Under the pieces are notes generated by a model. That model did no database searches. It was not told the DNA's origin and saw only the letters and a list, made by a program, of their open reading frames with translations. The position numbers were made by a program, and so were the translations under genes. DNA of 32,660 nt from a virus (lineage: Duplodnaviria > Heunggongvirae > Uroviricota > Caudoviricetes): the IMG/VR virus record IMGVR_UViG_2648501400_000018. One strand, 5' to 3'. How positions within the stretch are numbered: position 1 is the stretch's first letter; every line of letters starts with the position of its first letter. Of the stretch, positions 2,222 through 28,985 are shown piece after piece.

Positions 2222-2292
2222 AAAATAGTCTCCAGGGTGATTTCAGGGTGTGCGAAGCCTGCCGGGTTGACGGCATTTTTCTGCGACCTGAA

Positions 2293-2388
2293 TTAATTAA
2301 ATAAGGCTATGAATATAAAAATCAGTGTAGTTATAGCGCTGGCCCATAATACAAAACGGTCAGCCAGCGATATCTTGCGGTATTGCAT
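2293..2388 (-). CDS. Candidate small hydrophobic peptide (about 31 aa; up to 42 aa from upstream ATG near 2421), not in the ORF track
   Basis: Minus-strand reading of the AT-rich gap between the B-like gene and the next early gene gives MQYRKISLADRFVLWASAITTLIFIFIALFN; an AAGGA Shine-Dalgarno lies about 6 nt upstream of the internal ATG. Coordinates approximate. Confidence 0.3.
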   Translation of the reverse strand: MQYRKISLADRFVLWASAITTLIFIFIALFN

Positions 2389-2423
2389 CACGTCCTTTCC
2401 GGTTAATTTGTGAAATACCATTT

Positions 2424-3548
2424 TCACACTCCTTTAATCACATCCGCATTCACCACCGGCACGCCGATATCAGCGGCCAGATTCATTGCGGCGATAACCA
2501 GATTCCCCAGCGCCAGCGGATAAAGCAGACTGACGTCACCGCGTCGGGATGAATTACATAATCGGGCGCGGATAGCATCGGCGGTGCTATCATCCAGCAC
2601 CTCGGAAACACCTTTCCCGGTACGCTGAAATTTGAACGCCAGAAACGCTTCCAGATAGTTATCCAGCGGCAGCAGTTCGACGACCTCGCAGCGCTGTACC
2701 ACTTCGCGCACCTCCTGATTACGTTCAGAAAGTTTCAGCTTTAGCTCCGGCTGGCCAATCAACACCACCGACAGCAGTTTTTTAAAGCCGTCCTCCAGCT
2801 CAAAGAACCGCTTCAAATGCTTGAGCGTCGGCACCGGTAGCGAGTGCGCCTCTTCAATAACCAGACAATGTGAGAACCCGGCGCGGGCCGACTCTTTCAG
2901 CACCCGGTGCAACTGGCGGTAACGGGCCTCCTGCGAGCGTTTGACGTTCTCCAGCGGTGCGATGGTGTTGATGATGGCCTCGGCAATCGACGCCGCTTTC
3001 AGAGTTTTGCCTTTGGCGTCGTTGTCTTCCATCGCAATGATGTACGGTTCGATGAGGATAACTGGCGCGTTTTCACGGTTGATGCGATCAGCCAGGTCAC
3101 GGCGTAGCGTGGTTTTCCCTGCGCCGGATTCGCCAACTACGGCGATAAATCCGCCATGTCGCGCGGTCTGATACAGTGCTTCACGCACGTAGCGGATATC
3201 TGGCGTGGTGAACACGTCGTCCGCACTCTGCATAACCTCATCGGCGAACGGGTCGCGGAACAACCCAAAATGCTTCTTCGCCGCTGGATTTAATACCTGT
3301 TTTGCCAGTAACATATTTTCGTCCTCACTGGATGATGTACCGGTGCAGGCGGTGGCCGCCGTCTGCGCCTCCTTCAGTTCAATACCTTTTTCTGCAAAAA
3401 ATGTGCTGATGCGCTCCCGTAGTTCTTCTGTTTTCGGCCACAGGCCGTGATTAACCATCTGCGCGATAACCGCTGCGGAAACTCCGGTAGCCTGTGCTAC
3501 TGCTGCCTGAGTGATGCCACGCTGGCGCAACTGTTGTTTAATCTGCAT
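2424..3548 (-). CDS. MuB-like transposition ATPase (AAA+ with N-terminal HTH)
   Basis: 374 aa ORF; N-terminal HTH (ITQAAVAQATGVSAAVIAQMVN); Walker A GESGAGKT; sits immediately downstream of the transposase as B follows A in Mu. Confidence 0.7.
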   Translation of the reverse strand: MQIKQQLRQRGITQAAVAQATGVSAAVIAQMVNHGLWPKTEELRERISTFFAEKGIELKEAQTAATACTGTSSSEDENMLLAKQVLNPAAKKHFGLFRDPFADEVMQSADDVFTTPDIRYVREALYQTARHGGFIAVVGESGAGKTTLRRDLADRINRENAPVILIEPYIIAMEDNDAKGKTLKAASIAEAIINTIAPLENVKRSQEARYRQLHRVLKESARAGFSHCLVIEEAHSLPVPTLKHLKRFFELEDGFKKLLSVVLIGQPELKLKLSERNQEVREVVQRCEVVELLPLDNYLEAFLAFKFQRTGKGVSEVLDDSTADAIRARLCNSSRRGDVSLLYPLALGNLVIAAMNLAADIGVPVVNADVIKGV

Positions 3549-7400: not shown

Positions 7401-7811
7401 ATGAACATAAAAGAAAGGCTCAAAAAAATACTCGCTGACAAAGCGTTATCAATCACTGATGCTGCCGCGCAGTGCGATATCCCATATCGTTCTCTACAAA
7501 ACTATCTGCGTGGCGAGCGAGAACCAAATGCGGAGGCATTGATCTCAATAGGTACCCATTTGGGTATAAATATTGATTGGCTGCTCACCGGCAGAGGAGG
7601 AATGCATCTGTCTGAACATGCGGATGTTTTGACTGAGCAGCCGGAATACAGCCATGCCGATTTGAAGTTACTGGAATTTTTGAATCAGTTGGAACCGGAT
7701 ATACGAAAGGATTTATTACGCAGTGCTGAAGAAAAACAGCGAGTGGCCGCCCTAGAAAAAAGATTAGAGGAATTGGCTTTAGAACTCGAAAGCCTAAAAC
7801 GTTCGGCGTAA
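7401..7811 (+). CDS. XRE-family HTH regulator, putative prophage repressor
   Basis: 136 aa ORF; N-terminal HTH (ITDAAAQCDIPYRSLQNYLRGEREPNAEALISIGTHLGINIDWLLTG); C-terminal coiled-coil-like region; divergent from ner-like gene. Confidence 0.55.
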   Translation: MNIKERLKKILADKALSITDAAAQCDIPYRSLQNYLRGEREPNAEALISIGTHLGINIDWLLTGRGGMHLSEHADVLTEQPEYSHADLKLLEFLNQLEPDIRKDLLRSAEEKQRVAALEKRLEELALELESLKRSA

Positions 7812-7849
7812 AGTGTTCTCATTAAGAACAAAACATGAAGGACTATGTT

Positions 7850-8371
7850 ATGAAACACTTTTTCTTACCTTTGGGGGGTTGTGCGCTGTTGTTGTCGGGA
7901 TGTGGTGATGACGATGTTACGCAGCCATCTGCATCGACAACGTTTACTGTTGAAACCGATAGTCCGGTAGTGAAGCGCGAATTGCCCTTTATTCGCCAAC
8001 AGTGTCCAGGACTGGATAAATACGCGGCAAACTTTGATAAATTTAAGGTCTACGACGACACGATGCGTCCGGTGACAACGGTGGAGTTTCACGTCAAGAA
8101 TGAGAACAGCATACCAGGTAATTACACCGCCTCTGATCATACCTGTTTCCTTTTCATCTCCAACAATGCCCACGAAGTGAAGATTTCAAAATCGGCCTGC
8201 CAGTCAGTTTGCTTTGATAAAGCGGATGTGCCGGGTGGGGATTTGGTTGTGAAACTGGATAAAGAAAGAGTTCCTATGACTGCTGATAAGAAACCACCAC
8301 GCGAGGGGTGCCTGATGGTTTACTCGCCAGAGCCGGATGGGGATTACTGGACGTGTCCAAGACAAGATTAA
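7850..8371 (+). CDS. Lipoprotein (signal peptide with lipobox LSGC)
   Basis: Start moved to the second ATG (MKHFFLPLGGCALLLSGCG), which has AAGGA about 7 nt upstream; six further cysteines in the mature part; AT-rich relative to late genes. Confidence 0.6.
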   Translation: MKHFFLPLGGCALLLSGCGDDDVTQPSASTTFTVETDSPVVKRELPFIRQQCPGLDKYAANFDKFKVYDDTMRPVTTVEFHVKNENSIPGNYTASDHTCFLFISNNAHEVKISKSACQSVCFDKADVPGGDLVVKLDKERVPMTADKKPPREGCLMVYSPEPDGDYWTCPRQD

Positions 8372-8448
8372 ACATGTTGTAAACAAAACAAAAAAGCGTG
8401 CAGACAGCACGCATTTACTATCTAACTCTACTGAAGGTTTCAGATTCT

Positions 8449-9480
8449 ATGCCAGCAAATGAACCTGCAAATGCAATCGTTGTAAATCATGTGGTTATTC
8501 ACCTTTTAGATAAAGAGCCGCATGGGGTGACATCCTTACAGCTTAGCCCGGCAGAGAGTGGCGTCACCGCAGCATCACAACGCTTAATAGATGATATCTG
8601 TGGGAAATATGCAGGGCGAATGGGGAAAGGTTATGGCCATTTTGAAGATGACCCTGACAATTACCCGATGCAAACAATCGTATCAGACTATTTAGCTCAA
8701 GAGCATCCTGATGATTTTTACCGTAGCTCCTGTCGCATGATTCGTCATCTGGAATCTCGGATTCAAACAACACCACTCGCTACTGGTGGCTATGTTCTAT
8801 TCGCCCACATTACGATGAATCAACACGAGCATATTCTAGTTGCCATGTTAAGCCCCACGACGGGAACTGCGGTTAACGATGCCTTTGCTATCCAGGAAAG
8901 TGTCTACCTTGATATCGACAAGCTACGTGTGGCGGGGCGTATTGACATTACGTCCTGGCAATCAGGTGCCGAACGTTATATAAGTTTCCTGAAAGGGAGC
9001 AATGCTGTATCTGGTTACTTTAAGCAGTTCCTGGGCTGTAACGATGTTTTGATCGCCAAGCGTGAAACAGAGAAATTGCGGGATGCGTTGAAAGAGTTTG
9101 CGACTGAGCAAGGGCTTGACCCCGCACGTCGAGAGGCTTTTCTGCAAACGGCCCATGACCATTTGAAGCAACTGAGCAAAGATGGTGAGCCTGTAGATCT
9201 GACAACCTTTGTGAACGCAGTCTGGCCACAAGAACCAGAGCTGCTATCGACTAAGCTGGCCAACCAAGAACTGGAACTGTCGGATGGTTTTGTCCCAGAT
9301 GGACGCGTACTAAAAGGAATCATTTCCTTTAAAGGAAAGTCCAATCATTGGGAGCTAAAGTTTGATCGTGCTGGTCTTCAAGATGGTTCAATTGAGTATA
9401 ATCGTAATCAGGATGTAATCATTCTAAGGAATATTCCTGATAGCTTCAGAGAAGAGATACTGGATGAGGTTGAGGAGTGA
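8449..9480 (+). CDS. NdpA/YejK-like nucleoid-associated protein family homolog
   Basis: N-terminal VNHVVIHLL, central GRIDITSWQSGAERYISFLKG...FLG and C-terminal WELKFD...LRNIPDSFREEI match remembered motifs of E. coli YejK; start placed at internal ATG MPANEP by alignment. Confidence 0.6.
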   Translation: MPANEPANAIVVNHVVIHLLDKEPHGVTSLQLSPAESGVTAASQRLIDDICGKYAGRMGKGYGHFEDDPDNYPMQTIVSDYLAQEHPDDFYRSSCRMIRHLESRIQTTPLATGGYVLFAHITMNQHEHILVAMLSPTTGTAVNDAFAIQESVYLDIDKLRVAGRIDITSWQSGAERYISFLKGSNAVSGYFKQFLGCNDVLIAKRETEKLRDALKEFATEQGLDPARREAFLQTAHDHLKQLSKDGEPVDLTTFVNAVWPQEPELLSTKLANQELELSDGFVPDGRVLKGIISFKGKSNHWELKFDRAGLQDGSIEYNRNQDVIILRNIPDSFREEILDEVEE

Positions 9481-10685
9481 GTATCAGTTTTGAGCAACTG
9501 GTGGGATTGTACAGGCAGATTACTTTCGGTAACGATATGGCCGAAGGTACGCTGGTGCTTACCCCAGAATCCTGCGAGTTGCTCAACGCTTTGCTTGAGG
9601 ACACCGATACATATGGGATCTCTCTGGCACAAGGTGAAGTAGTGGCTGGCCAGCAGGTGTCGCTTTTTGTGAACGCACCAAAGACAAAGCTAGGTCTGCT
9701 ATGCCGTAATTTGGCGGCTTTGTTAAAGTCGCCAAAACACCAAAGCGAGGAACCTTCCCGCTACTACCTGATCGACAGCCAATTTTATAGTTCGGATGCG
9801 CCAACATCCGTAATTGAAAACTACCGCACTATCTTAACATTTCTGCGCCTGCTTAAAGAAAAGTCGGCATACTTTGATACCAGTGCATATGAATGCGTTT
9901 TTTTCCGTGCCGATGTATTTAAATTACCTATACGTTACAGTGCAGAAACCGTAGAAAATCTTGATAAAACGACACTCGATGAACTCATTCAGCAGTTTTC
10001 TGACGACACACACAAAGAGCAGAAACTCTCGCTTTTAATTGAAAGCATCCAGTTAATCGGCCAGGAAACGGAAAACAATAAAGTCTTTGAGTATGCACTG
10101 AAGAACATTGATAAATTAAAAGTTGAGTTCGATAAGGGTTATCGCCTCTTCACTTCTGGGTTCTCATACGAAAAGGTTCTGGATGAACTTAGAACCGCCA
10201 AAGTTGAAGAAATGGGACGTATCCATAAAGTCTTTTCAGATATCCAAAACCAGATACTGGGTATCCCAGTCGCAACCATTATCGTCGCGACACAAATCAA
10301 GAAAGCAAGTGGTGATGTCTATCAAACCATTATCAATAGAGCAGTTTTTTTAGGGGCCTTTGTTTTTGCTACGTTGGTTATGTTGACTTTGTTCAACCAG
10401 TTACAGACGTTAACTGCTATCAAAGAAGAACTTCGACATAAAAAGACTCAGGTTGATAAAAAATATGCATCAATAAAAAATGACATTGATAGTATCTTTT
10501 GCTCTGTACGTAAACGTCTTTGCCGTCAGGTTATTGCGTTCTGGTTTATTATTATGTTCCTTGTTGTCGCTATTATATCGACAGGATTAATTTACCTATA
10601 CTGCACATACCCTGAAACATGGAATATCTTGGTTACAAAAGTGATGTCATGGCGGCATCACTTGAGCAATAAGCCCACTCCTTAA
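9477..10685 (+). CDS. Membrane protein with two C-terminal transmembrane helices, translationally coupled to the NdpA-like gene
   Basis: GTG start overlaps the upstream stop (GTGA); about 270 aa soluble N-domain then AVFLGAFVFATLVMLTLF and VIAFWFIIMFLVVAIISTGLIYLY. Confidence 0.5.
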   Translation: MSISFEQLVGLYRQITFGNDMAEGTLVLTPESCELLNALLEDTDTYGISLAQGEVVAGQQVSLFVNAPKTKLGLLCRNLAALLKSPKHQSEEPSRYYLIDSQFYSSDAPTSVIENYRTILTFLRLLKEKSAYFDTSAYECVFFRADVFKLPIRYSAETVENLDKTTLDELIQQFSDDTHKEQKLSLLIESIQLIGQETENNKVFEYALKNIDKLKVEFDKGYRLFTSGFSYEKVLDELRTAKVEEMGRIHKVFSDIQNQILGIPVATIIVATQIKKASGDVYQTIINRAVFLGAFVFATLVMLTLFNQLQTLTAIKEELRHKKTQVDKKYASIKNDIDSIFCSVRKRLCRQVIAFWFIIMFLVVAIISTGLIYLYCTYPETWNILVTKVMSWRHHLSNKPTP

Positions 10686-10750
10686 ACCCCTTTAAAAGCC
10701 TTCCTGCCAGCCATCCCCCACACTGCCTTCATCACCCAATGGAGGCACTT

Positions 10751-11038
10751 ATGAAAAATCTTTTCCCGCGTTTATCCGGCTGGCTGTTTGCCGCAGTTGT
10801 TTTGTTTGTACAAATAGTCGCGATCTCTCCGCAACAGGTTCCGGTGGTGGGTTACAAATTAAGCCTGATCTCACTGGCGGCGGTGCTGGGCTACTGGCTT
10901 GATCGCAGCCTGTTTCCCTATGCGCGACCTAATCATTTTTATCTGACGGAAGGTGAGCAACTATTGTTTGCTGCGTCCATGCTGCGCCGAGCCGTGATTG
11001 TCGCTGCTGTGTGCCTGGCCGTAGCGATGGGGATGTGA
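10751..11038 (+). CDS. Putative holin (three hydrophobic segments)
   Basis: Start placed at ATG preceded by GGAGG; hydrophobic stretches WLFAAVVLFVQIVAI, LSLISLAAVLGYWL, AVIVAAVCLAVAMGM; immediately upstream of the endolysin. Confidence 0.4.
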   Translation: MKNLFPRLSGWLFAAVVLFVQIVAISPQQVPVVGYKLSLISLAAVLGYWLDRSLFPYARPNHFYLTEGEQLLFAASMLRRAVIVAAVCLAVAMGM

Positions 11039-11040
11039 CT

Positions 11041-11757
11041 ATGGGCTGGCCACAAATTACCTGGATTGTGTTGGTCTCGCTGTCGTTAGGGATAGAGATG
11101 ATGATGCACAGCAGGACGCGTAAGCACAATTTCTGGGGACACTTAGCCAGTGTATTAGTAGTCGCTGGTTTGCTCTGGTGCGGCGGCTTTTTCAGCCAGG
11201 CGCACGCCGCCGAACCGCCCACCGCCGCGAAACCTTACCGCGCCGAATTGGTGCGTAATGCCCGCGCGGTATGGGGGATGGATGCGCCTGTCGCCGATTT
11301 CGCCGGGCAGTTCCAGCAGGAATCCGGCTGGAATCCCGCCGCCCGTTCACCCGTTGGTGCGCAGGGGATGGCGCAGTTTATGCCCTCCACTGCCGACTGG
11401 ATCAGCAAACAATTCCCGGAACTACGTTCCCGCGAGCCGTTCAATCCGTCGTGGGCCATCCGCGCGCTGATGCAGTACGACCAGTGGCTGTGGCAGCGCG
11501 TGAGTGGGCGCGATAACTGCCAGCGGATGGCGTTCACCTTAAGCGCCTATAACGGCGGCTTAGGCTGGGTGAACCGCGATAAAAAACTGGCGACGCAGCG
11601 CGGATTAAATGCTGCCGTCTGGTTCGATGCGGTGGCGACGGTCAACGCCGGGCGCAGCGCCGCCAACTGGCGCGAAAACCGGGGTTATCCGCAACGCATC
11701 CTGTACCAGAACGCGCCGCGCTATCTGTCATGGGGAGGGGCTAACTGTGTTCGATAA
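11041..11757 (+). CDS. Lytic transglycosylase-type endolysin (SLT domain) with N-terminal signal or SAR-like segment
   Basis: SLT-like motifs QESGWNPAA and GAQGMAQFMPSTADW; N-terminal hydrophobic stretch LASVLVVAGLLWCGGFFSQAHA; ATG 3 nt after the holin stop. Confidence 0.7.
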   Translation: MGWPQITWIVLVSLSLGIEMMMHSRTRKHNFWGHLASVLVVAGLLWCGGFFSQAHAAEPPTAAKPYRAELVRNARAVWGMDAPVADFAGQFQQESGWNPAARSPVGAQGMAQFMPSTADWISKQFPELRSREPFNPSWAIRALMQYDQWLWQRVSGRDNCQRMAFTLSAYNGGLGWVNRDKKLATQRGLNAAVWFDAVATVNAGRSAANWRENRGYPQRILYQNAPRYLSWGGANCVR

Positions 11758-12340
11758 ACTCAAAACGGCGGGGTTAGCCGTCACGCTGATACTGCTATTC
11801 GTCGTGTTTGGCGGGTATTTCGCGTGGCTGCAAGGCCACAAACACGGCTACGAGAAGGCGCAGACTGAATGCCTGCGCCTGCAAAAACAGCAGGCCAAGG
11901 CCGGGCAACGGGCGTTGCAGGAGGAAATAAACCGCAGCCAGCAGCAGTTGATTCACATCCGGGAAAGCGAGCAGACCTATCTCACCCGGACAGAGGAACT
12001 CACTGCACGCAACGCCGAACTACAGAGGAAAATTAACGATGTTACGCAGCATTACGTTGACGAAAAAGGCAAGGCTCATCCTTTGGCCTGCGTGTTTACT
12101 CGCGGCTTCGTGCAGCAGTACAACGCCTCCCTCGGCGTGTCCGCCCCGGATGCTGCCGCCGCTACCCGCGACGCTGGCGCAGCCGCCGCAGCCGTTCAGG
12201 GCGCTGACGCCCGGTTACGCGCCTCCGGCGTCAGCCAGCGCGACATCCTCGCCAATCTCGCCGACAACGGCCAGCGCTGCCAGCAGTTAGCGCTCCAGGT
12301 GCGCGGCTTGCAGAACTATATCGCGGAGGTGTCGCGATGA
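11747..12340 (+). CDS. Rz-like inner-membrane spanin
   Basis: Start at in-frame GTG (VFDKLKTAGLAVTLILLFVVFGGYFAWL: N-terminal TM) followed by a Q/R/E-rich coiled-coil region; directly follows the endolysin. Confidence 0.55.
   Translation: MFDKLKTAGLAVTLILLFVVFGGYFAWLQGHKHGYEKAQTECLRLQKQQAKAGQRALQEEINRSQQQLIHIRESEQTYLTRTEELTARNAELQRKINDVTQHYVDEKGKAHPLACVFTRGFVQQYNASLGVSAPDAAAATRDAGAAAAAVQGADARLRASGVSQRDILANLADNGQRCQQLALQVRGLQNYIAEVSR
12039..12290 (+). CDS. Rz1-like outer-membrane lipoprotein spanin embedded in the +1 frame of the Rz-like gene
   Basis: 83 aa ORF wholly inside the Rz-like gene; signal peptide ending LLAASC then a proline-rich mature region, the classic embedded Rz1 architecture. 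Confidence 0.5.
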   Translation: MLRSITLTKKARLILWPACLLAASCSSTTPPSACPPRMLPPLPATLAQPPQPFRALTPGYAPPASASATSSPISPTTASAASS

Positions 12341-12651
12341 TGTTGCAGATTGACTTCTGGGAGGTGATCTCGATGGCGCTGTCGTTTTTGGGCGTGCTGG
12401 TCGCCGCGGGGAAGATGCTGCTGACCCAGATTGAGAAGCGCCTCAACGAACGCTTTGAGTCGCTGGAAGCGGCACGTAAGGAGTCGGAATCCGGCTGGTC
12501 ACGGCTGGAGCGCGAGTTCCTGGAGTTCCGCGCCGACATGCCGCTGAACTATGTGCGGCGCGAGGATTATATCCGGGGACAAACGGTTATCGAGGCCAAG
12601 CTGGACGCGCTGTATAACAAAATCGAACTGTCGCAAGGGGGTGGTAAATGA
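12337..12651 (+). CDS. Hypothetical membrane-anchored coiled-coil protein
   Basis: 104 aa ORF; N-terminal hydrophobic segment ISMALSFLGVLVAAG then charged helical region; ATGA overlap with upstream gene. Confidence 0.4.
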   Translation: MMLQIDFWEVISMALSFLGVLVAAGKMLLTQIEKRLNERFESLEAARKESESGWSRLEREFLEFRADMPLNYVRREDYIRGQTVIEAKLDALYNKIELSQGGGK

Positions 12652-16499: not shown

Positions 16500-17304
16500 T
16501 GAGTTAGCCTATTGCCTGAGTCTGCCGCCAAAGCGGGCCATCGGCTATCTGGAGTCCAAAGGCTATACCCTGTCGTGGGACTGGGAGGAGGTCTGGCAGG
16601 AAGCTCACGCCCACGCTTTTACCGTCGCGAAGGTGACAAAGCTGGATATACTGGAAGATATCCGCCGCGCGCTGGAGCGGTCACTGGCGGAGGGCAAAAC
16701 CGGCGCGTGGTTTCGTAAGGAACTGGAGCCGGTGTTGAAAGAGAAAGGCTGGTGAGGCGAGAAAGAAATCACCGACCCGGACACCGGGGAAGTGACCATC
16801 ATCCAGCAAGGCAGTTCCTGGCGACTTGATACCATCTACCGCACCAATATGACGGTGGTTTACAGTGCCGGGCGCTGGGCCGAGCAGATGGAAAACGTCG
16901 ACGATCGTCCATATGGGATGTACTGTGCCATTTGCGACAACCGCACCCGTCAACCCCACCTCCTGCTGCATCAGATGGTCATGCGTCTTGATGATCCATT
17001 CTGGCAGTCATTCTACCCGCCTAACGGCTGGGGGTGCCGCTGTACAGTGATAGCAATGACTGAGGCGGATGTCCGCCGCCGCAGGCTGAAAATCACGGCC
17101 TCCGGCGATGCGCTGGGGGAAACGATGAAACTGATATCGATGCAAACCGGAGAATTGCAACCGGTGGCCACCTTTACTATTGGCAATACGATTATCACCC
17201 CAGATGCGGGCTGGTCATACGCGCCGGGCGCGGCGTACCGCCCGGACTTAGCCAAATACCAGGGCGTGCTCGCGCCGCTGGCGCAACAGGAGCTGGCACC
17301 ATGA
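16483..17304 (+). pseudogene. Head morphogenesis protein F-like (Mu gp30 / SPP1 gp7 family) interrupted by an in-frame TGA at 16753-16755
   Basis: ORFs 16447-16755 and 16792-17304 are in the same frame, separated by one TGA (…KEKGW*GEKEITDPDTGE…) with 12 open codons between; the downstream part carries the Phage_Mu_F-like motif DNRTRQPH...DDPFW...PPNGWGCRCT. Confidence 0.5.
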
Positions 17305-19118: not shown

Positions 19119-19370
19119 ATGGCAAATCATTTACAGGGTAAACGCGTCGTTAACCCTATCCTGACCACCGTTGCGCGTGGCTATAAAAACGCGGCGTTTA
19201 TCGGGGAGAAGATTTTCCCGGTGGTGGAGATGGATAAAGAAGGCGCAACGGTGCCGACGTTCGGCAACGGCGTGTTTGCCGTCTATGAGACGAAACGCGC
19301 CGTGGGTGCTGACAGTAACGTCATGATCCGTGAGAAAACCGGTAAAGCTGGACGCAGTGACATATATTGA
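19119..19370 (+). pseudogene. Short ORF of uncertain identity joined out of frame to the sheath gene (possible 5' remnant of the major capsid gene, or an aberrant sheath N-terminus)
   Basis: 83 aa ORF in the position where Mu-like phages carry the major head gene T; terminates inside the start of the sheath reading frame (overlap 19330-19370). Confidence 0.3.
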
Positions 19371-20703: not shown

Positions 20704-21027
20704 ATGAAAGACACTTTCGAACTGCAATACCCTTTCACCGCGCCCTCCGGGCAGCACATCGACGAACTGCAACTGACCCGCCTGAAGGTGAAGGATATGC
20801 GCGCTGCGCGCCGTATCAGCGACAAACCGGAGGACTGGGATGAACCGCTGCTGGCGGCGATGACCGGGCTGGTGCCGGAAGATTTAGCTGAAATGGATCT
20901 GGCGGATTACCAGGCATTGCAGAAACGATTTCAAAACATGCTTGGGCTGGGCGGCGAATCCGCAGCAACTGTGGCAGGCGATGGCACTGCTGGCGCGGTG
21001 GTTTCGGTTTCAGCCGGGGGAAATTGA
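20704..21027 (+). CDS. Tail assembly chaperone (P2 gpE-like)
   Basis: 107 aa ORF between tube and tape-measure genes; low-complexity G/A/S-rich C-terminus; overlapped by an out-of-frame extension ORF. Confidence 0.55.
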   Translation: MKDTFELQYPFTAPSGQHIDELQLTRLKVKDMRAARRISDKPEDWDEPLLAAMTGLVPEDLAEMDLADYQALQKRFQNMLGLGGESAATVAGDGTAGAVVSVSAGGN

Positions 21028-21103
21028 CGGGCTGGCGGTGGATGATTTTGAGCGCTGGCTGGATGAGGCCAGCGCGCAGATTAAGCGTGAGAGCGGAAGC
21101 TGA
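20888..21103 (+). CDS. Out-of-frame extension of the tail chaperone (E'-like), reachable only by translational frameshift
   Basis: The +1 frame is open from about 20888 to a TGA at about 21101-21103 and reads protein-like sequence (NPQQLWQAMALLARWFRFQPGEIDGLAVDDFERWLDEASAQIKRESGS); slip site not identified. Confidence 0.4.
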   Translation: MKWIWRITRHCRNDFKTCLGWAANPQQLWQAMALLARWFRFQPGEIDGLAVDDFERWLDEASAQIKRESGS

Positions 21104-21341
21104 TATGGCTGATAGCGGTAAACAACACGGTGAGTGCAACCAGAACGGGTTCCAGTACCAGCGCCACCAGTAACGCCGCCAGTGAGCCGAAGAAAACCCC
21201 GCCGCAGACAAACAACAGAATAACAAACCCGTCGTTGCTTGCTGTTAATCCGTAACTTGCCATCAGGTAAAGAATGGTTAACCAGGCAACGGCAGCGCAG
21301 GTAAAACGAAGCGCATCAAACACCATCGTTATTTTGTTCAT
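21081..21341 (-). CDS. Small membrane protein encoded antisense to the tail operon
   Basis: 86 aa ORF with 2-3 hydrophobic helices (AAVAWLTILYLMASYGL; FVILLFVCGGVFFGSLAALLVALVL) filling an otherwise non-coding gap; AGAGGGAA Shine-Dalgarno-like sequence upstream of its ATG. Confidence 0.5.
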   Translation of the reverse strand: MNKITMVFDALRFTCAAVAWLTILYLMASYGLTASNDGFVILLFVCGGVFFGSLAALLVALVLEPVLVALTVLFTAISHISFRSHA

Positions 21342-21382
21342 ACCGTTCCCTCTTCTTTGTCTCTTTTACGGGAGTGTAAAAC

Positions 21383-24070
21383 GTGGCTGCTGAATTTTCA
21401 ATCGGTGTGGTGATTAAAGGGATGATGGCGGGTTCGCTGTTGTCGGCTATTGGCGGAACGCAAAAAACCTTAAAAGGGCTGGAATCCACCACCGCACGCC
21501 TGAAAAAGCAACATGCAGATATGACGCAGGAACTGGCGCGTAATACCAATGGCAGCACCGAAGCCACGGCGCGACTAAACCGCGAGTTACAGAGTGTGGG
21601 CAGGACGCTGGAGAACCTGAAACTGCGGCACGATAACTTAGCTAACGCTGCCAGCCGGAGCGCTGCGCTGCGCTCCCAGCGCATGGAACTTTACGGACGC
21701 GGTCTGGAGACGATGGCGCAGGCAAAGGTAGTGTCGTCCCCCGTTGTTGCCTCGGTAAAACAGTATGCCGCCTTTGAGTCCGGGCTGCGTGATATCGCCG
21801 TGACGGGGGATCTGGACAGTAAGCAGGAGGCAGCAATTGGCAATGCCATTCGTCAGGCGGCAGGTCAGGTTAACCAGATGCAGGAGACGTTGCTTGGCGG
21901 CGTGAATCAACTGGTGGCTGATGGCATGAATCCAGAGAAAGCGGCAAATATGATTGGCCTGCTGGGTAAAACAGCCACCGCCACCGGCGCTGATATGACC
22001 GACCTGGCGAAAATGACCTATGCCTTCAGCGACGCGCTAAAAATCGGCGATGGCAAGGAGATGGAAGAGGCCTTTGCGCTGGCCGCTGCGGGTGCCAAAA
22101 CCGGCTCTTTTGAGCTGAAAGATATGGCAAAAGCGTTGCCGACGCTGGCAAAAAGTTTTGCCGCCAAAGGTATTACTGGCCCGGAGGCGATCAAGGAAAT
22201 TATTGCTTCACTGGAGCTGGGAAAAGGTGCAGGTTCGGCGGAGGAAGCCGTCACCAACATGACCAACTGGATGGGGGCGATGACGCGCGGTGACACTATC
22301 AAGAAATATGAAAAAGCGGGCGTGAAATATGATGCCTCCATGCAGGATTATGTTGCCAAGGGGTATTCGCAGTACGAAGCCTCGCTGATGATTGCCAATG
22401 AGTTTATTGACGGGAAAGGTGCGGCCTTTAAAAAGCAATGGGAGGCTGCGGGGGCAAAAGGCGACGGTGAAGCACAGCAAAAATTGATGGAATCCTTTGG
22501 TCTGTCAGAAATCTTTACCGATATCCAGACCGTCAACCATTTGCTGTCAATGCGTCAGAACTGGAGTCAGTACCAGACTAAAAAAACACAGATGGCGACC
22601 CCGGAAGCGCAAAAGACGCTGGATACCGACTTCGCAAAACAGGGCGATACGCTGGAGGCTCGTTGGCGAAAATCACAGGTTGCGCTGAATGAAGTGGCGT
22701 TGAGTATCGGCAGTTCGTTGTGCCCGGCGCTGATATCGCTGATGGATACCGTGGTGCCGTGGCTTGATGCGCTGGGGAAATGGGCAGCGGCGAACCCGGA
22801 AATTATCGCCGGGATCGGGAAAGCGGCGGCGGGATTTTTTGTTATTAAAAGTTCGATGATTGGCACCCAGATTGTGGCCAACTATTTATTTTCCACCTGG
22901 GCGGGCGGCGCAAAGGCGATTGCATTACTGGCTGCAAAAGGTACGCAGTTAAAAGCTGCCTTTTCCGTTGGTGGTAAACTGGCAGGCATCACTAAGTTGT
23001 TCGGCTCACTGGCGCGTGGCGCGTTGTCACTGGGTAAAATACTCGGTGGCGGACTCCTGCGCGGTCTGATGATGGCAGGACGCGCGGTGTTGTTTTTGGG
23101 CCGGGCGCTGATGATGAATCCCATCGGTCTGATCATCACCGGCATCGCCGTGGCCGCGTATCTGATTTACCGCTACTGGGGGCCGATTTCCGCTTTCTTT
23201 AAGCGGCTGTGGGCGCAGGTCACGGTAGCGTTTCGTGGGGCGTGGAGCGGCATCAAAGGTATCTGGAGTGGTGTGTCGGGCTGGTTCTCTGGTATCTGGG
23301 CGCAAATCAAAACCGCGTTCAGCGGCGGGATTGGCGGCGTGGCAAAGCTGATTACCAACTGGTCGCCGCTGGGCCTGTTCTATAAAGCCTTTGCCGGGGT
23401 GATGAAATACTTCGGTATTGATATGCCGAAAAACTTTACCGATTTTGGCGGCAATCTGATTAACGGTCTGGTGAACGGTATCGGCAATGCGCTGACTGCC
23501 GCGAAAGAGACGGTCGTTAACTTTGGTAACTCGATTTCAGGCTGGTTTAAGGAGACGCTGGGGATTCATTCCCCCAGCCAGGTGTTTGCCGGGTTCGGCG
23601 ACAATATCGCGCAAGGGGCCGCTATCGGTATCAACCGCACCGCCCCGGATGCGATTTCCGCCAGCCAGCAGATGGCACAGGCATTGATTCCACCCGCACC
23701 GGGTATCGTTGTTCCGGGCATTGCGGTGTCGGCCATTCCCCGACAGTCAGACGTTATGTTACATGGTGCTATGGGTGCGGCGCTGTCACAACCAAAACCA
23801 TTGCCGCCGATAACCCCCGGTGTCGCAGTCCCTGCTGTTCCTGAACTGCCGAAAAGTACCGCGCCAGCCGCCAAAGGCCGCAATGCCAGTGCGCACGTAC
23901 CGGGGCAGTCGTCCGGGGTGAATGTCACCTTCGCGCCGCAAATCACTATCAAAGGCGCAGCCTCAACGACCGAAGGTGAAATCACCTCGGCGCTGAAACT
24001 GAGCCTGCACGAACTGGAGAAGATGATGGAGCGGATTATGGCGCGTCGTGAACGCCGGGAGTATGCGTAA
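21383..24070 (+). CDS. Tail tape measure protein
   Basis: 895 aa ORF downstream of the chaperone/frameshift pair; long helical A/K/Q-rich regions and G/W-rich hydrophobic repeats (GIWSGVSGWFSGIWAQIKTAFSGG) typical of tape measure proteins. Confidence 0.75.
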   Translation: MAAEFSIGVVIKGMMAGSLLSAIGGTQKTLKGLESTTARLKKQHADMTQELARNTNGSTEATARLNRELQSVGRTLENLKLRHDNLANAASRSAALRSQRMELYGRGLETMAQAKVVSSPVVASVKQYAAFESGLRDIAVTGDLDSKQEAAIGNAIRQAAGQVNQMQETLLGGVNQLVADGMNPEKAANMIGLLGKTATATGADMTDLAKMTYAFSDALKIGDGKEMEEAFALAAAGAKTGSFELKDMAKALPTLAKSFAAKGITGPEAIKEIIASLELGKGAGSAEEAVTNMTNWMGAMTRGDTIKKYEKAGVKYDASMQDYVAKGYSQYEASLMIANEFIDGKGAAFKKQWEAAGAKGDGEAQQKLMESFGLSEIFTDIQTVNHLLSMRQNWSQYQTKKTQMATPEAQKTLDTDFAKQGDTLEARWRKSQVALNEVALSIGSSLCPALISLMDTVVPWLDALGKWAAANPEIIAGIGKAAAGFFVIKSSMIGTQIVANYLFSTWAGGAKAIALLAAKGTQLKAAFSVGGKLAGITKLFGSLARGALSLGKILGGGLLRGLMMAGRAVLFLGRALMMNPIGLIITGIAVAAYLIYRYWGPISAFFKRLWAQVTVAFRGAWSGIKGIWSGVSGWFSGIWAQIKTAFSGGIGGVAKLITNWSPLGLFYKAFAGVMKYFGIDMPKNFTDFGGNLINGLVNGIGNALTAAKETVVNFGNSISGWFKETLGIHSPSQVFAGFGDNIAQGAAIGINRTAPDAISASQQMAQALIPPAPGIVVPGIAVSAIPRQSDVMLHGAMGAALSQPKPLPPITPGVAVPAVPELPKSTAPAAKGRNASAHVPGQSSGVNVTFAPQITIKGAASTTEGEITSALKLSLHELEKMMERIMARRERREYA

Positions 24071-24976
24071 TGTTTGCCGTACTGGGGGATATTGAGTTTG
24101 AGGTGGTGACCTACTGGGACGGCTTTGATGCGTCGTTTGGCATGGATTACGCCGAGCACGCACGCATCGAAGGCAAACCGGGGTTGCAGTTTATCGGCGA
24201 AAAGCTGGATGAAGTCAGCATCAGTCTGGTGTTCCATGACCACTATTGCCAGCCGGATGTTGAACTGGCGCGGCTGCGTGGCGCATCAGGCGCTGGCGCT
24301 GGTGTTCGGCAACGGGGACTATCGCGGCTGGTTTGTGGTAACCGATATTCGGGCGACCAGCCAGCAGACCGATGGCCTCGGTAATGTGCAGGCGTTAAGT
24401 GCAGAGCTGTCGCTGAAGGAGTACATCGGCGATCCGAAAAATCCCCTGACGCCACCGGCTGTGTCCGGGGACGATCCGAATATCGATTCGTGGTCTGACG
24501 ATGCCGACGACAGTTTTTCCGGCAGCGATATGTTCGACGGCCTAAGCGATATTACCGACGGGCTGGATGCGGCATCGGACGCGCTGGATGCCGCAGAGCA
24601 GGCGTTCGATGAGGCAGTGTCGTGGGCGGAAGATGTGGTGGAGCAAGTTGAAGATGCGATTGATGACGTACTTTCACCGCTGGAGGACGTTCTCAATGAG
24701 GTGTTATCACCACTCGATGAGGTGATGCAGGCGCTGGAGGGTATCATGGGCGGCGGCGTACTGACCGATGCTCTCGGCGAGGTCGGGCAAGTCGCCTCGC
24801 AGATTTACGATGAAATCAGCAGTACGTTGACCGGGCTTGACGGTATCACCCCCGACAACTTTGCCGATCTGTTCTCGCAGGCACTGGACGTGGTGCGCAA
24901 CGGTCAGTCATTGATGGAAGCGTGTTCTCCCGCCGTTAGCAGGCTGGCGGCGGCAATCATTACCAGGAGCGTGTGA
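24070..24976 (+). pseudogene. Tail protein gpU-like / Mu DNA-circulation (N)-like gene with a +1 frame change near 24277-24290
   Basis: Frame A (24070-24384) has a gpU-like N-terminus up to ...DVELARLR; frame B (24125-24976) continues the family pattern from ...HQALALVFGNGDYRGWFVVTDI and carries an acidic C-terminal region. Confidence 0.5.
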
Positions 24977-28282: not shown

Positions 28283-28985
28283 GTTACCGCTTCAACCGCC
28301 GCTCGCCGGGGATGAACGCTTTACCCGGCTGGCAAATCTTGCCGCTGAACGCTTCGCACAACTCGATCTGACCGCGCTTCTGATTTATCTGGTGGATGCC
28401 ACGGCGCTGCCGTCGCTGGCAGAACAGTTCCACGTTCAGGGGCTGGAAGGCTGGCTGTTTGCCCGCGATGAGCGACAAAAGCGCGATCTGATCAAGCAGG
28501 CCATTGAGCTGCACCGCTATCGCGGTACGCCGTGGGCAGTGCGTCAGGTACTGAAGATTCTGGCGTTGGACGGCGATATCAGCGAGTGGTTTGAGTATGG
28601 CGGTAAGCCGTACTTTTTCCGCATGGATGTCACGCTTGAGACGCGCGGGCTGACTGAGGATGAATTTAACGCGCTGATTGTGCTGATCCATGAGTACAAG
28701 AACGTCCGCTCAAAGCTGGAGATGCTGACTATCTGGCTGATTAACCAGAGCCAGATCCCGGTTATCGCCAGTGCTGTTCAGGGCGGCGAGATTGCTACCG
28801 TTCTGCCGTGGATTGCGGAGAGCGTGAGTCAGTCGTCTGCGGTTTATCTGGCGACGGAGTGTTTGAGTGCAGAGGTGGTAACGGTGTTGCCTCCGCTGCA
28901 TGGCAATGTTGAGCAGACCAGCGTTATGAGTGTTGGAGCGGGCTGCTGGAGTATTGAGTTTGTCACTGTTTACCCGGAGGAGTAA
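28275..28985 (+). CDS. Tail protein I-like (baseplate)
   Basis: 236 aa ORF between the J-like gene and the tail fibre gene, overlapping both, as P2 gpI. Confidence 0.6.
   Translation: MDKLPLQPPLAGDERFTRLANLAAERFAQLDLTALLIYLVDATALPSLAEQFHVQGLEGWLFARDERQKRDLIKQAIELHRYRGTPWAVRQVLKILALDGDISEWFEYGGKPYFFRMDVTLETRGLTEDEFNALIVLIHEYKNVRSKLEMLTIWLINQSQIPVIASAVQGGEIATVLPWIAESVSQSSAVYLATECLSAEVVTVLPPLHGNVEQTSVMSVGAGCWSIEFVTVYPEE

Follow-up and report, generated by a model that had tools for sequence, protein, structure and literature searches.

We describe here a small gene on the minus strand of a 32,660-nt stretch of viral DNA (IMG/VR virus record IMGVR_UViG_2648501400_000018; "the window" hereafter denotes this whole stretch), which occupies positions 21081–21341 between the GpE-like extension of the tail assembly chaperone (E′) and the tape-measure protein gene (T). 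The window is a defective copy of a transposable BcepMu-like (Mu-like) prophage, and its host is E. coli. Judged from synteny and substitution patterns, the small open reading frame (ORF) is a genuine gene under purifying selection; its product is a membrane protein, the pattern of presence and absence among related phages marks it as an accessory gene of this prophage type, and locus comparisons reveal a cassette-like hypervariability. As a tentative interpretation, held with limited confidence, the protein may act in superinfection exclusion at the DNA-entry step, via the tape-measure protein.

The gene is an 86-codon ATG ORF, with the stop codon within the above coordinates, and its predicted product is an 86-aa small integral membrane protein, MNKITMVFDALRFTCAAVAWLTILYLMASYGLTASNDGFVILLFVCGGVFFGSLAALLVALVLEPVLVALTVLFTAISHISFRSHA. 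E′ stops at 21103 and T begins with a GTG at 21383; the 279-bp gap that the small ORF occupies between them is the widest interruption in the chain of plus-strand late genes, and plus-strand ORFs within it do not exceed 49 aa. A Shine-Dalgarno sequence, GAGGGA, can be read on the minus strand at 21347–21352, 5 nt upstream of the ATG at 21341, and every homologue is likewise preceded by a ribosome-binding site (RBS; AGAGG, AGGGGA, GGAGA, GGAG, or GAGGGGGA), i.e., a purine-rich Shine-Dalgarno sequence is found at the same distance in every allele type. ORF length alone is weak evidence for coding, since 57 of 5000 mononucleotide shuffles of the region (~1%) yielded a minus-strand ATG ORF of ≥86 codons, so that a frame this long is only mildly unlikely. 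The decisive support that this ORF is coding comes instead from its relatives: all 12 family members looked up occupy the antisense strand of the E′–T interval in a BcepMu-like tail operon, each with an RBS and with 34–42 nt between the small-gene ATG and the T start, and the ratio of non-synonymous to synonymous substitution rates (dN/dS) in the minus-strand frame is 0.09–0.22 for all nine within-allele-type pairs. These ratios were taken within allele types, where synonymous change is unsaturated. The 12 members comprise the window type, four A35-type, three L017-type, P0021, the Dickeya protein P0020, and the distant P0027 and P0030, and come from E. coli, Salmonella, Dickeya, and metagenomic BcepMu-like prophages. 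The initial annotation of this DNA, made from the letters alone, had proposed an 86-aa opposite-strand ORF with two to three hydrophobic helices, a gap devoid of plus-strand coding, a Shine-Dalgarno-like sequence of its own, and a 3′ end converging on the chaperone extension. Coordinates, hydropathy, and predicted helices agree with this description, and the ORF conservation on which it depended was found in the same slot of all members looked up.

The convergence takes the form of a 23-nt antisense overlap (21081–21103), in which the end of the small gene (F-R-S-H-A-stop) faces the end of E′ (K-R-E-S-G-S-stop); in other alleles, the RRR of the small protein is the reverse complement of the GGG in the E′ tail. 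This overlap suggests that the antisense small gene may shape the end of E′. Opposite strands of the same bases encode the E′ tail (GGG or SGS) and the small-protein tail (RRRSHA or FRSHA) in the window and at loci L001, L015, L017, and L052. The E′ tails found where the small gene is absent differ (YGSQT, YDSQE, FGDNQ).

The mean Kyte-Doolittle hydropathy of the window protein is 1.43, with hydrophobic stretches at residues ~13–32 and 39–82, the second of which is broken by E64-P65. From the N-terminus, the protein reads as an N-tail (MNKITMVFDALR), a hydrophobic helix (~13–32), an acidic loop (TASNDG), a hydrophobic segment (39–62), an L-E-P turn whose P65 is family-invariant, another hydrophobic segment (66–82), and a basic end (FRSHA). 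AlphaFold2, run with a 13-sequence alignment, returned two long helices (2–34 and 38–84) with a predicted local distance difference test (pLDDT) score of 85, fusing the second and third hydrophobic segments into one helix of a plain helical hairpin. Hydropathy and the modelled helices thus concur on the membrane character that the initial annotation had put forward for checking, while a topology of two to three helices is predicted. Across the family (86–97 aa), the same architecture is kept at 15–30% identity: a short N-tail, helix 1, usually an acidic loop, helix 2 containing a Gly found in every member, a Pro that is likewise invariant and mostly part of Leu-Gln-Pro, a third hydrophobic segment, and an Arg-rich tail. 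The two invariant positions are G48 and P65 in window protein numbering, and over 19 members the charges amount to ~+1 for the N-tail, about −1 for the loop, and +1 (the window allele) to +5 for the C-tail.

This family was reached via a positional homologue in E. coli A35 together with profile searches, while a word-indexed protein search with the window protein retrieved its own cluster only. The A35 protein, annotated in RefSeq as a 92-aa "hypothetical protein" (WP_032217816.1), shares slot and orientation with the window protein and is 33% identical to it, and profile searches extended the family to Salmonella, E. coli, Dickeya, Pectobacterium, and Prodigiosinella. An exhaustive hidden Markov model search of 1.84 billion representative proteins yielded 13 clusters only (E-value ≤ 0.001; clusters at 50% identity). 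One further sequence, P0014 (114 aa, from an ENA metagenome contig), follows the A35-type allele over its first 59 residues and then continues into unrelated sequence; it is an apparent frameshifted copy. Annotated phage relatives were reached solely through a tape-measure protein search: DNA and protein searches of the phage collection with the slot, the A35-type protein, and P0028 returned nothing, and a back-translated IMG/VR search with the whole-family alignment, which has no conserved stretch, also recovered nothing.

The gene itself had already been called, as the window protein stands in public records as "hypothetical protein [Escherichia coli]" and the exact protein is called as a gene on contigs in 56 blocks of the collection searched; we found no function, family name, or comparative description for it. 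No credible family for the window protein emerged from Pfam, PHROGs, NCBIfam, or PADLOC. No Pfam, PHROG, or NCBIfam match to the gp15/YebO-like family was obtained among 19 members at E-value ≤ 1, none of 7 members matched a PADLOC-DB defence model at E-value ≤ 1, and a PDB profile search with the small protein gave no sequence match at E-value ≤ 10. A BFVD fold search with the AlphaFold2 model produced no significant match, the best being an uncharacterised protein (E-value 0.039). Distant members matched phrog_25743 (PHROGs v4, unknown function) near full length (P0028, E-value 2.6e-8; P0029, E-value 5.6e-5), and several alleles matched it weakly but at full length (E-value 0.035–0.1), whereas the window protein had no match. 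A tblastn search for the source phages of phrog_25743 gave no match in the phage collection.

We next consider the distribution of the gene among related phages. The E′–T gap measures 279–298 bp where the small gene is present. The slot is without it in Klebsiella phage KP12 (92-bp gap), in E. coli phage PhiKM (~75-bp gap), in ~35 enterobacterial relatives at a greater distance, whose T N-terminus differs (gap of 93–110 bp where measurable), and in Pseudomonas and Xanthomonas relatives. In a Lelliottia wanjuensis prophage (L009, 3401–3472), a 72-bp remnant of a window-type small gene keeps the 5′ leader, the ALRFT codons (...ALRFTAVGA...), and the RFHA end, the helices having been deleted, and its T (start at 3473) is without about residues 23–120 of the window T. 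Deletion has thus removed the small gene from one lineage at least. A moron, as originally defined, lies between genes that are adjacent in relatives, has its own promoter and terminator, through which the repressed prophage can express it, and differs in base composition (Juhala/Hendrix; PMC3594210, PMC2920897). The gap comparison shows the small gene separating two genes that related phages carry side by side; its base composition, however, is not distinct, as its GC content of 0.50 compares with values of 0.51 (tube gene), 0.58 (E), 0.56 (T), and 0.55 (window), with the same picture at nine other loci. Ordinary GC content and deep synteny rule out a recent horizontal insertion, and the gene is therefore best regarded as an old accessory gene. 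Of the initial annotation, the real, opposite-strand, accessory small membrane gene stands: the related prophages compared, as had been proposed, show the same slot filled in the 12 members and empty in KP12, PhiKM, and the ~35 distant relatives. The wording "insertion" does not hold, given the ordinary GC content and a synteny that spans Enterobacterales and probably reaches Burkholderia and Ralstonia phages.

Within this conserved slot, the small gene is hypervariable. Between allele types, the small proteins are 19–47% identical, compared with 95–100% for the tube protein and 90–98% for E in the same pairs. The pair L052 and L063 illustrates how sharply this variation is bounded: the DNA is 97–100% identical on either side and falls to 35–65% only across ~240 bp inside the small gene, such that the small proteins are 41% identical while the T N-termini are 99% identical. 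Synonymous divergence in this pair is ~1.0 in the small gene versus 0.1–0.2 in the flanks; these are ancient alleles traded by recombination, as opposed to products of a local rise in mutation rate. Comparison of the window with L001 or L061 gives a variable block made up of the small gene plus the first ~400 nt of T (21383–21780, ~130 codons), i.e., an N-terminal variable block of T adjoins the small-gene block, which is not the case for L052 versus L063.

Counterparts of the gene may exist well outside the Enterobacterales. In Burkholderia phage phiE255, gp17 (YP_001111217.1, "membrane protein", 80 aa) is encoded antisense between a GpE-like ORF and the tape-measure gene, and gp17-like ORFs also occur in BcepMu (unannotated), Ralstonia phage YO107_2, and 12 IMG/VR contigs, always 28–29 nt from the T start. 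These proteins are 79–80 aa long and 46–98% identical among themselves, and PHROGs assigns phiE255 gp17 to phrog_20219, in the category "moron, auxiliary metabolic gene and host takeover"; the window protein did not match phrog_20219 by hmmscan. They share with the enterobacterial family the slot, orientation, size, helix pattern, a Gly/Gln-Pro turn that precedes the last helix, and a C-tail rich in Arg; unlike that family, the beta-proteobacterial proteins have no E′ overlap and are far less variable. A local hhalign comparison of the two families gave 70% probability (E-value 4e-5) over 33 columns covering the Pro turn, last helix, and basic tail, as against 15% for the full-length comparison and 0.5% for a single sequence, a similarity too weak to establish homology on sequence alone. 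Because slot, orientation, size, and architecture are identical, we consider common ancestry probable, although not proven. In the BcepMu record (L053, NC_005882), the unannotated protein (2229–2471, minus strand, 80 aa) has 96% identity to phiE255 gp17, and the slot is covered by a plus-strand gp43 (2142–2528) described as "alternative gene 42 C-terminus by ribosomal slippage". This plus-strand gp43 is probably a misannotation over the antisense small gene. A literature search on the expression or function of the BcepMu and phiE255 gp17-like genes found nothing specific.

Minus-strand promoter prediction upstream of the small gene, a check proposed with the initial annotation, returned a sigma-70-like candidate at 21373–21401, confounded by an overlap with T that is weighed below. 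It combines a −35 element (TTGAAA, 21401–21396), a 17-nt spacer, and a −10 element (TACACT, 21378–21373), scores 9 of 12 matches in a consensus scan, and predicts a transcription start near 21366, ~25 nt before the ATG. All enterobacterial allele types retain the motif TTGAAA-17-TAC(A/T)CT despite a varying T start codon (GTG or ATG), T leader, and spacer length, and KP12 and PhiKM, which are without the small gene, have CTGAAA and an unrelated T leader. As an indication of promoter function, the TTGAAA-17-TACACT motif is suggestive, no more. Because the small gene opposes the late operon in orientation, we infer that its transcription would be independent of this activator-dependent operon, so that expression in the lysogen is possible.

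Two characterised systems offer models for what such a gene might do. The first moron to be described, HK97 gene 15, is located after the tail chaperone gene and ahead of the tape-measure gene; its product, gp15, is an inner-membrane protein that the prophage expresses and that blocks the entry of DNA, depending on the tail or tape-measure protein (PMC3594210; Cumby et al. 2012 reviewed there). The parallels are the chaperone/tape-measure slot, a small inner-membrane protein, and absence from close relatives. The two proteins have no sequence relationship, however: gp15 has a single N-terminal helix related to YebO, whereas the protein described here would have two to three helices, and HK97 is a siphovirus, whereas here we find an antisense gene with an E′ overlap, ordinary GC content, and an old, syntenic, multi-allelic family. 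HK97 gp15 is transcribed in the direction of the tail genes and has its own terminator. In phage T4, the 83-aa membrane protein Imm is reported to bind the tape-measure protein gp29 and to block pore formation and genome translocation, and the authors drew a comparison with proteins that confer immunity to pore-forming colicins (bioRxiv 10.64898/2026.03.06.709160). Imm resembles the present protein in size, polytopic inner-membrane helices, and myovirus context; it provides a mechanistic model, and the colicin-immunity analogy fits the allelic diversity. Unlike the present gene, imm belongs to the early genes of T4, a lytic phage, and does not adjoin the tape-measure gene, and the two proteins have no detectable sequence or fold similarity.

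The exclusion role that we tentatively favour would proceed as follows. The small protein is predicted to be polytopic in the inner membrane, with two to three helices, a first loop that is acidic, a turn at Pro, and a basic C-tail facing the cytoplasm. A promoter of its own, placed over the T start, would drive its transcription in opposition to the late tail operon, so that it could be made while the late genes are silent, i.e., in the lysogen; during lytic growth, late transcription converging on the gene would dampen its expression. In the lysogen, it would block DNA entry of rival phages, as reported for T4 Imm and proposed for HK97 gp15, and the sharply bounded, anciently diverged alleles would represent exclusion specificities kept by an arms race. 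We favour this reading over its rivals because the protein is small and polytopic, because the gene is tightly linked to T, and because many discrete alleles under purifying selection are swapped between near-identical prophages.

Several observations weigh against it. The promoter candidate overlaps T codons 5–7, the T leader, and the T RBS, which confounds its conservation, and no intrinsic terminator or terminator-like hairpin was found 3′ of the small gene on the minus strand. A literature search found no transcript, protein, or phenotype data for family members, and the searches made here revealed no sequence or fold likeness to Imm, YebO/gp15, SieA-type, or defence families. The allele does not track the linked T type (L052 and L063), a pattern that fits the exclusion of incoming phages and yet lends it no positive support. 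Likewise, the low variability of the Burkholderia and Ralstonia gp17-like proteins (46–98% identity) fits a housekeeping role equally. Finally, small transmembrane proteins under weak constraint typically diverge fast.

A more specific version of the exclusion reading, which we regard as doubtful, takes the alleles as a tape-measure-directed "immunity cassette". Each of the dozen or more alleles would exclude different incoming tape-measure variants, with a specificity akin to that of pore-forming-colicin immunity proteins. Recombination would shuffle the alleles at two anchors, namely the E′ end with the RRRSHA tail and the promoter with the T start, and the antisense placement over the T start would tie exclusion to lysogeny by transcriptional interference.

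Among the alternatives, the best placed, if still unlikely, is that of a lysogenic-conversion membrane protein modulating a host transporter, sensor, or envelope, in the manner of lambda Bor and Lom or of small regulatory membrane proteins. The accessory status, the antisense orientation with a promoter-like motif, and the membrane location fit such a role equally well. The small gene is also intact in a decaying prophage, but this prophage is too young to be informative: with 9 substitutions in 13.4 kb against an intact relative, retention of the gene cannot be read as a sign of selection. On the other hand, with a conserved host target one would not expect cassette swapping among at least 12 alleles that have diverged deeply, and the family occurred solely within BcepMu-like tail operons, at no other genomic place.

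A lytic life-cycle role, either as a membrane "immunity" protein or chaperone against the phage's own T pore domain or as a tail-assembly or DNA-entry factor, appears distinctly unlikely. Such a role would accord with the fixed 28–42-nt linkage to T from Burkholderia to E. coli phages and with the window-type variable block, which takes in the first ~130 T codons. It would also accord with the Lelliottia locus, where the small-gene core was lost along with ~100 N-terminal T codons, and with the good conservation of the gp17-like proteins of the plaque-forming phages BcepMu and phiE255. The antisense orientation, however, bars co-transcription with T and the late genes, the small gene is dispensable in the sequenced KP12 and PhiKM, whose T N-terminus is similar, and the allele can change while T stays 99% identical.

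There is a slim chance that the product is a membrane-damaging toxin (a holin/antiholin-like timer, a type I toxin, or an abortive-infection effector) restrained by antisense late transcription or low expression. Its small size, two to three hydrophobic helices, and basic C-tail recall class I holins (three transmembrane helices, N-out/C-in, basic C-tail), weak holin matches were recorded (phrog_1350, E-value 0.028, for the A35-type protein; Phage_holin_3_3, E-value 0.24, for one member), and the convergent overlap with late mRNA would permit antisense control. These holin matches are nevertheless at noise level, with no PADLOC match, and at 86–97 aa with two to three helices the proteins are larger than typical type I toxins. 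A lysogen without late antisense RNA would, moreover, leave a toxin unrestrained. Unlike a holin gene, the small gene lies outside the lysis cassette, and a holin identity is disfavoured by the complete holin-endolysin-spanin cassette at 10739–12651, which includes a separate holin (10739–11038; phrog_1528, E-value 5e-36) alongside the endolysin and an Rz-like spanin. That the slot holds no gene at all, being a chance antisense ORF in a spacer or a spacer that makes a regulatory antisense RNA, is practically excluded: the shuffle frequency of ~1% and a BcepMu annotation that passes over the antisense ORF and marks the plus strand would favour it, against the dN/dS values in the minus-strand frame, the helix pattern, invariant Pro, and basic tail kept across the family, the conserved RBS, the synteny in 12 of 12 members, and the lack of any relevant Rfam match, and thus of a known non-coding RNA, in the E′–T spacer.

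The remainder of the window follows the organisation of this prophage type. Its minus-strand genes include a Ner-like regulator, a transposase, a transposition ATPase-like protein, and a late activator. The plus strand carries a repressor-like gene followed by the lysis cassette, the terminase, Mu-type portal and head genes, and P2/Mu-type contractile tail genes (sheath, tube, E/E′, T, gpU, X, D, V, W, J, I, and fibre). Between the repressor-like gene (7401–7811) and the lysis cassette, three plus-strand genes at 7835–10685 encode a 178-aa protein, a 360-aa nucleoid-associated-protein-like product (phrog_3767), and a 402-aa protein (phrog_5023), which are possible cargo or early functions. The tail assembly chaperone E (20704–21027, plus strand; Pfam Phage_TAC_7) is followed by the E′ frame, which is open from 20888 to its stop at 21103 and lies in the +1 frame relative to E. 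The same +1 frame is seen in L001; a fusion would need a +1 or −2 shift within 20888–21005, and E′ may alternatively be translated alone from the ATG at 20981, as PGAP annotates in relatives. A plus-strand hairpin with a T-run is present at 20985–21002, inside the E/E′ overlap. The E/E′ extension of P2 uses a −1 frame. T itself (21383–24070, plus strand, 895 aa; PhageMin_Tail) starts with a GTG located 41 nt from the divergent small-gene ATG and is 50% identical to BcepMu gp44. Its hydrophobic segments, at residues 5–23 and 568–596, are of the kind expected of a pore-forming domain.

The defects of this copy are best seen against L004, to which the window is 99.8% identical. They comprise a 2,834-bp deletion at 19343/19344 that runs from inside a 312-aa head gene to inside the sheath gene and creates a fusion, a nonsense change at 16755 that splits the Mu F-like gene, the loss of 11 bp at 24277, which puts gpU out of frame, and the loss of 9 bp at 28386, which leaves the gpI-like gene in frame. 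Elsewhere, T is broken yet the small gene is intact at L003 (6954–7959; T split into 329 and 560 aa), and in A35 (L001, 3789–6487) T is annotated as a pseudogene with an internal stop and the small gene is intact.

Overall, the antisense placement over the T start, the conservation across BcepMu-like phages, and the sharply bounded allelic hypervariability are notable features that deserve an experiment. The enterobacterial small proteins carry no family name in current annotation, and if the gene were merely a conserved accessory membrane protein, it would be an ordinary prophage gene of the hypothetical-protein class. If, however, the exclusion reading is true, these prophages would hold a natural multi-allelic set of small membrane proteins targeting DNA entry of contractile-tailed phages, and the allele swaps between near-identical prophages would provide a ready cross-exclusion matrix for studying inner-membrane opening by the tape-measure protein and its specificity. 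The slot occupied by HK97 gp15 would then be common to lambdoid siphoviruses and the Mu-like myoviruses of Enterobacterales, probably with those of Burkholderia as well.

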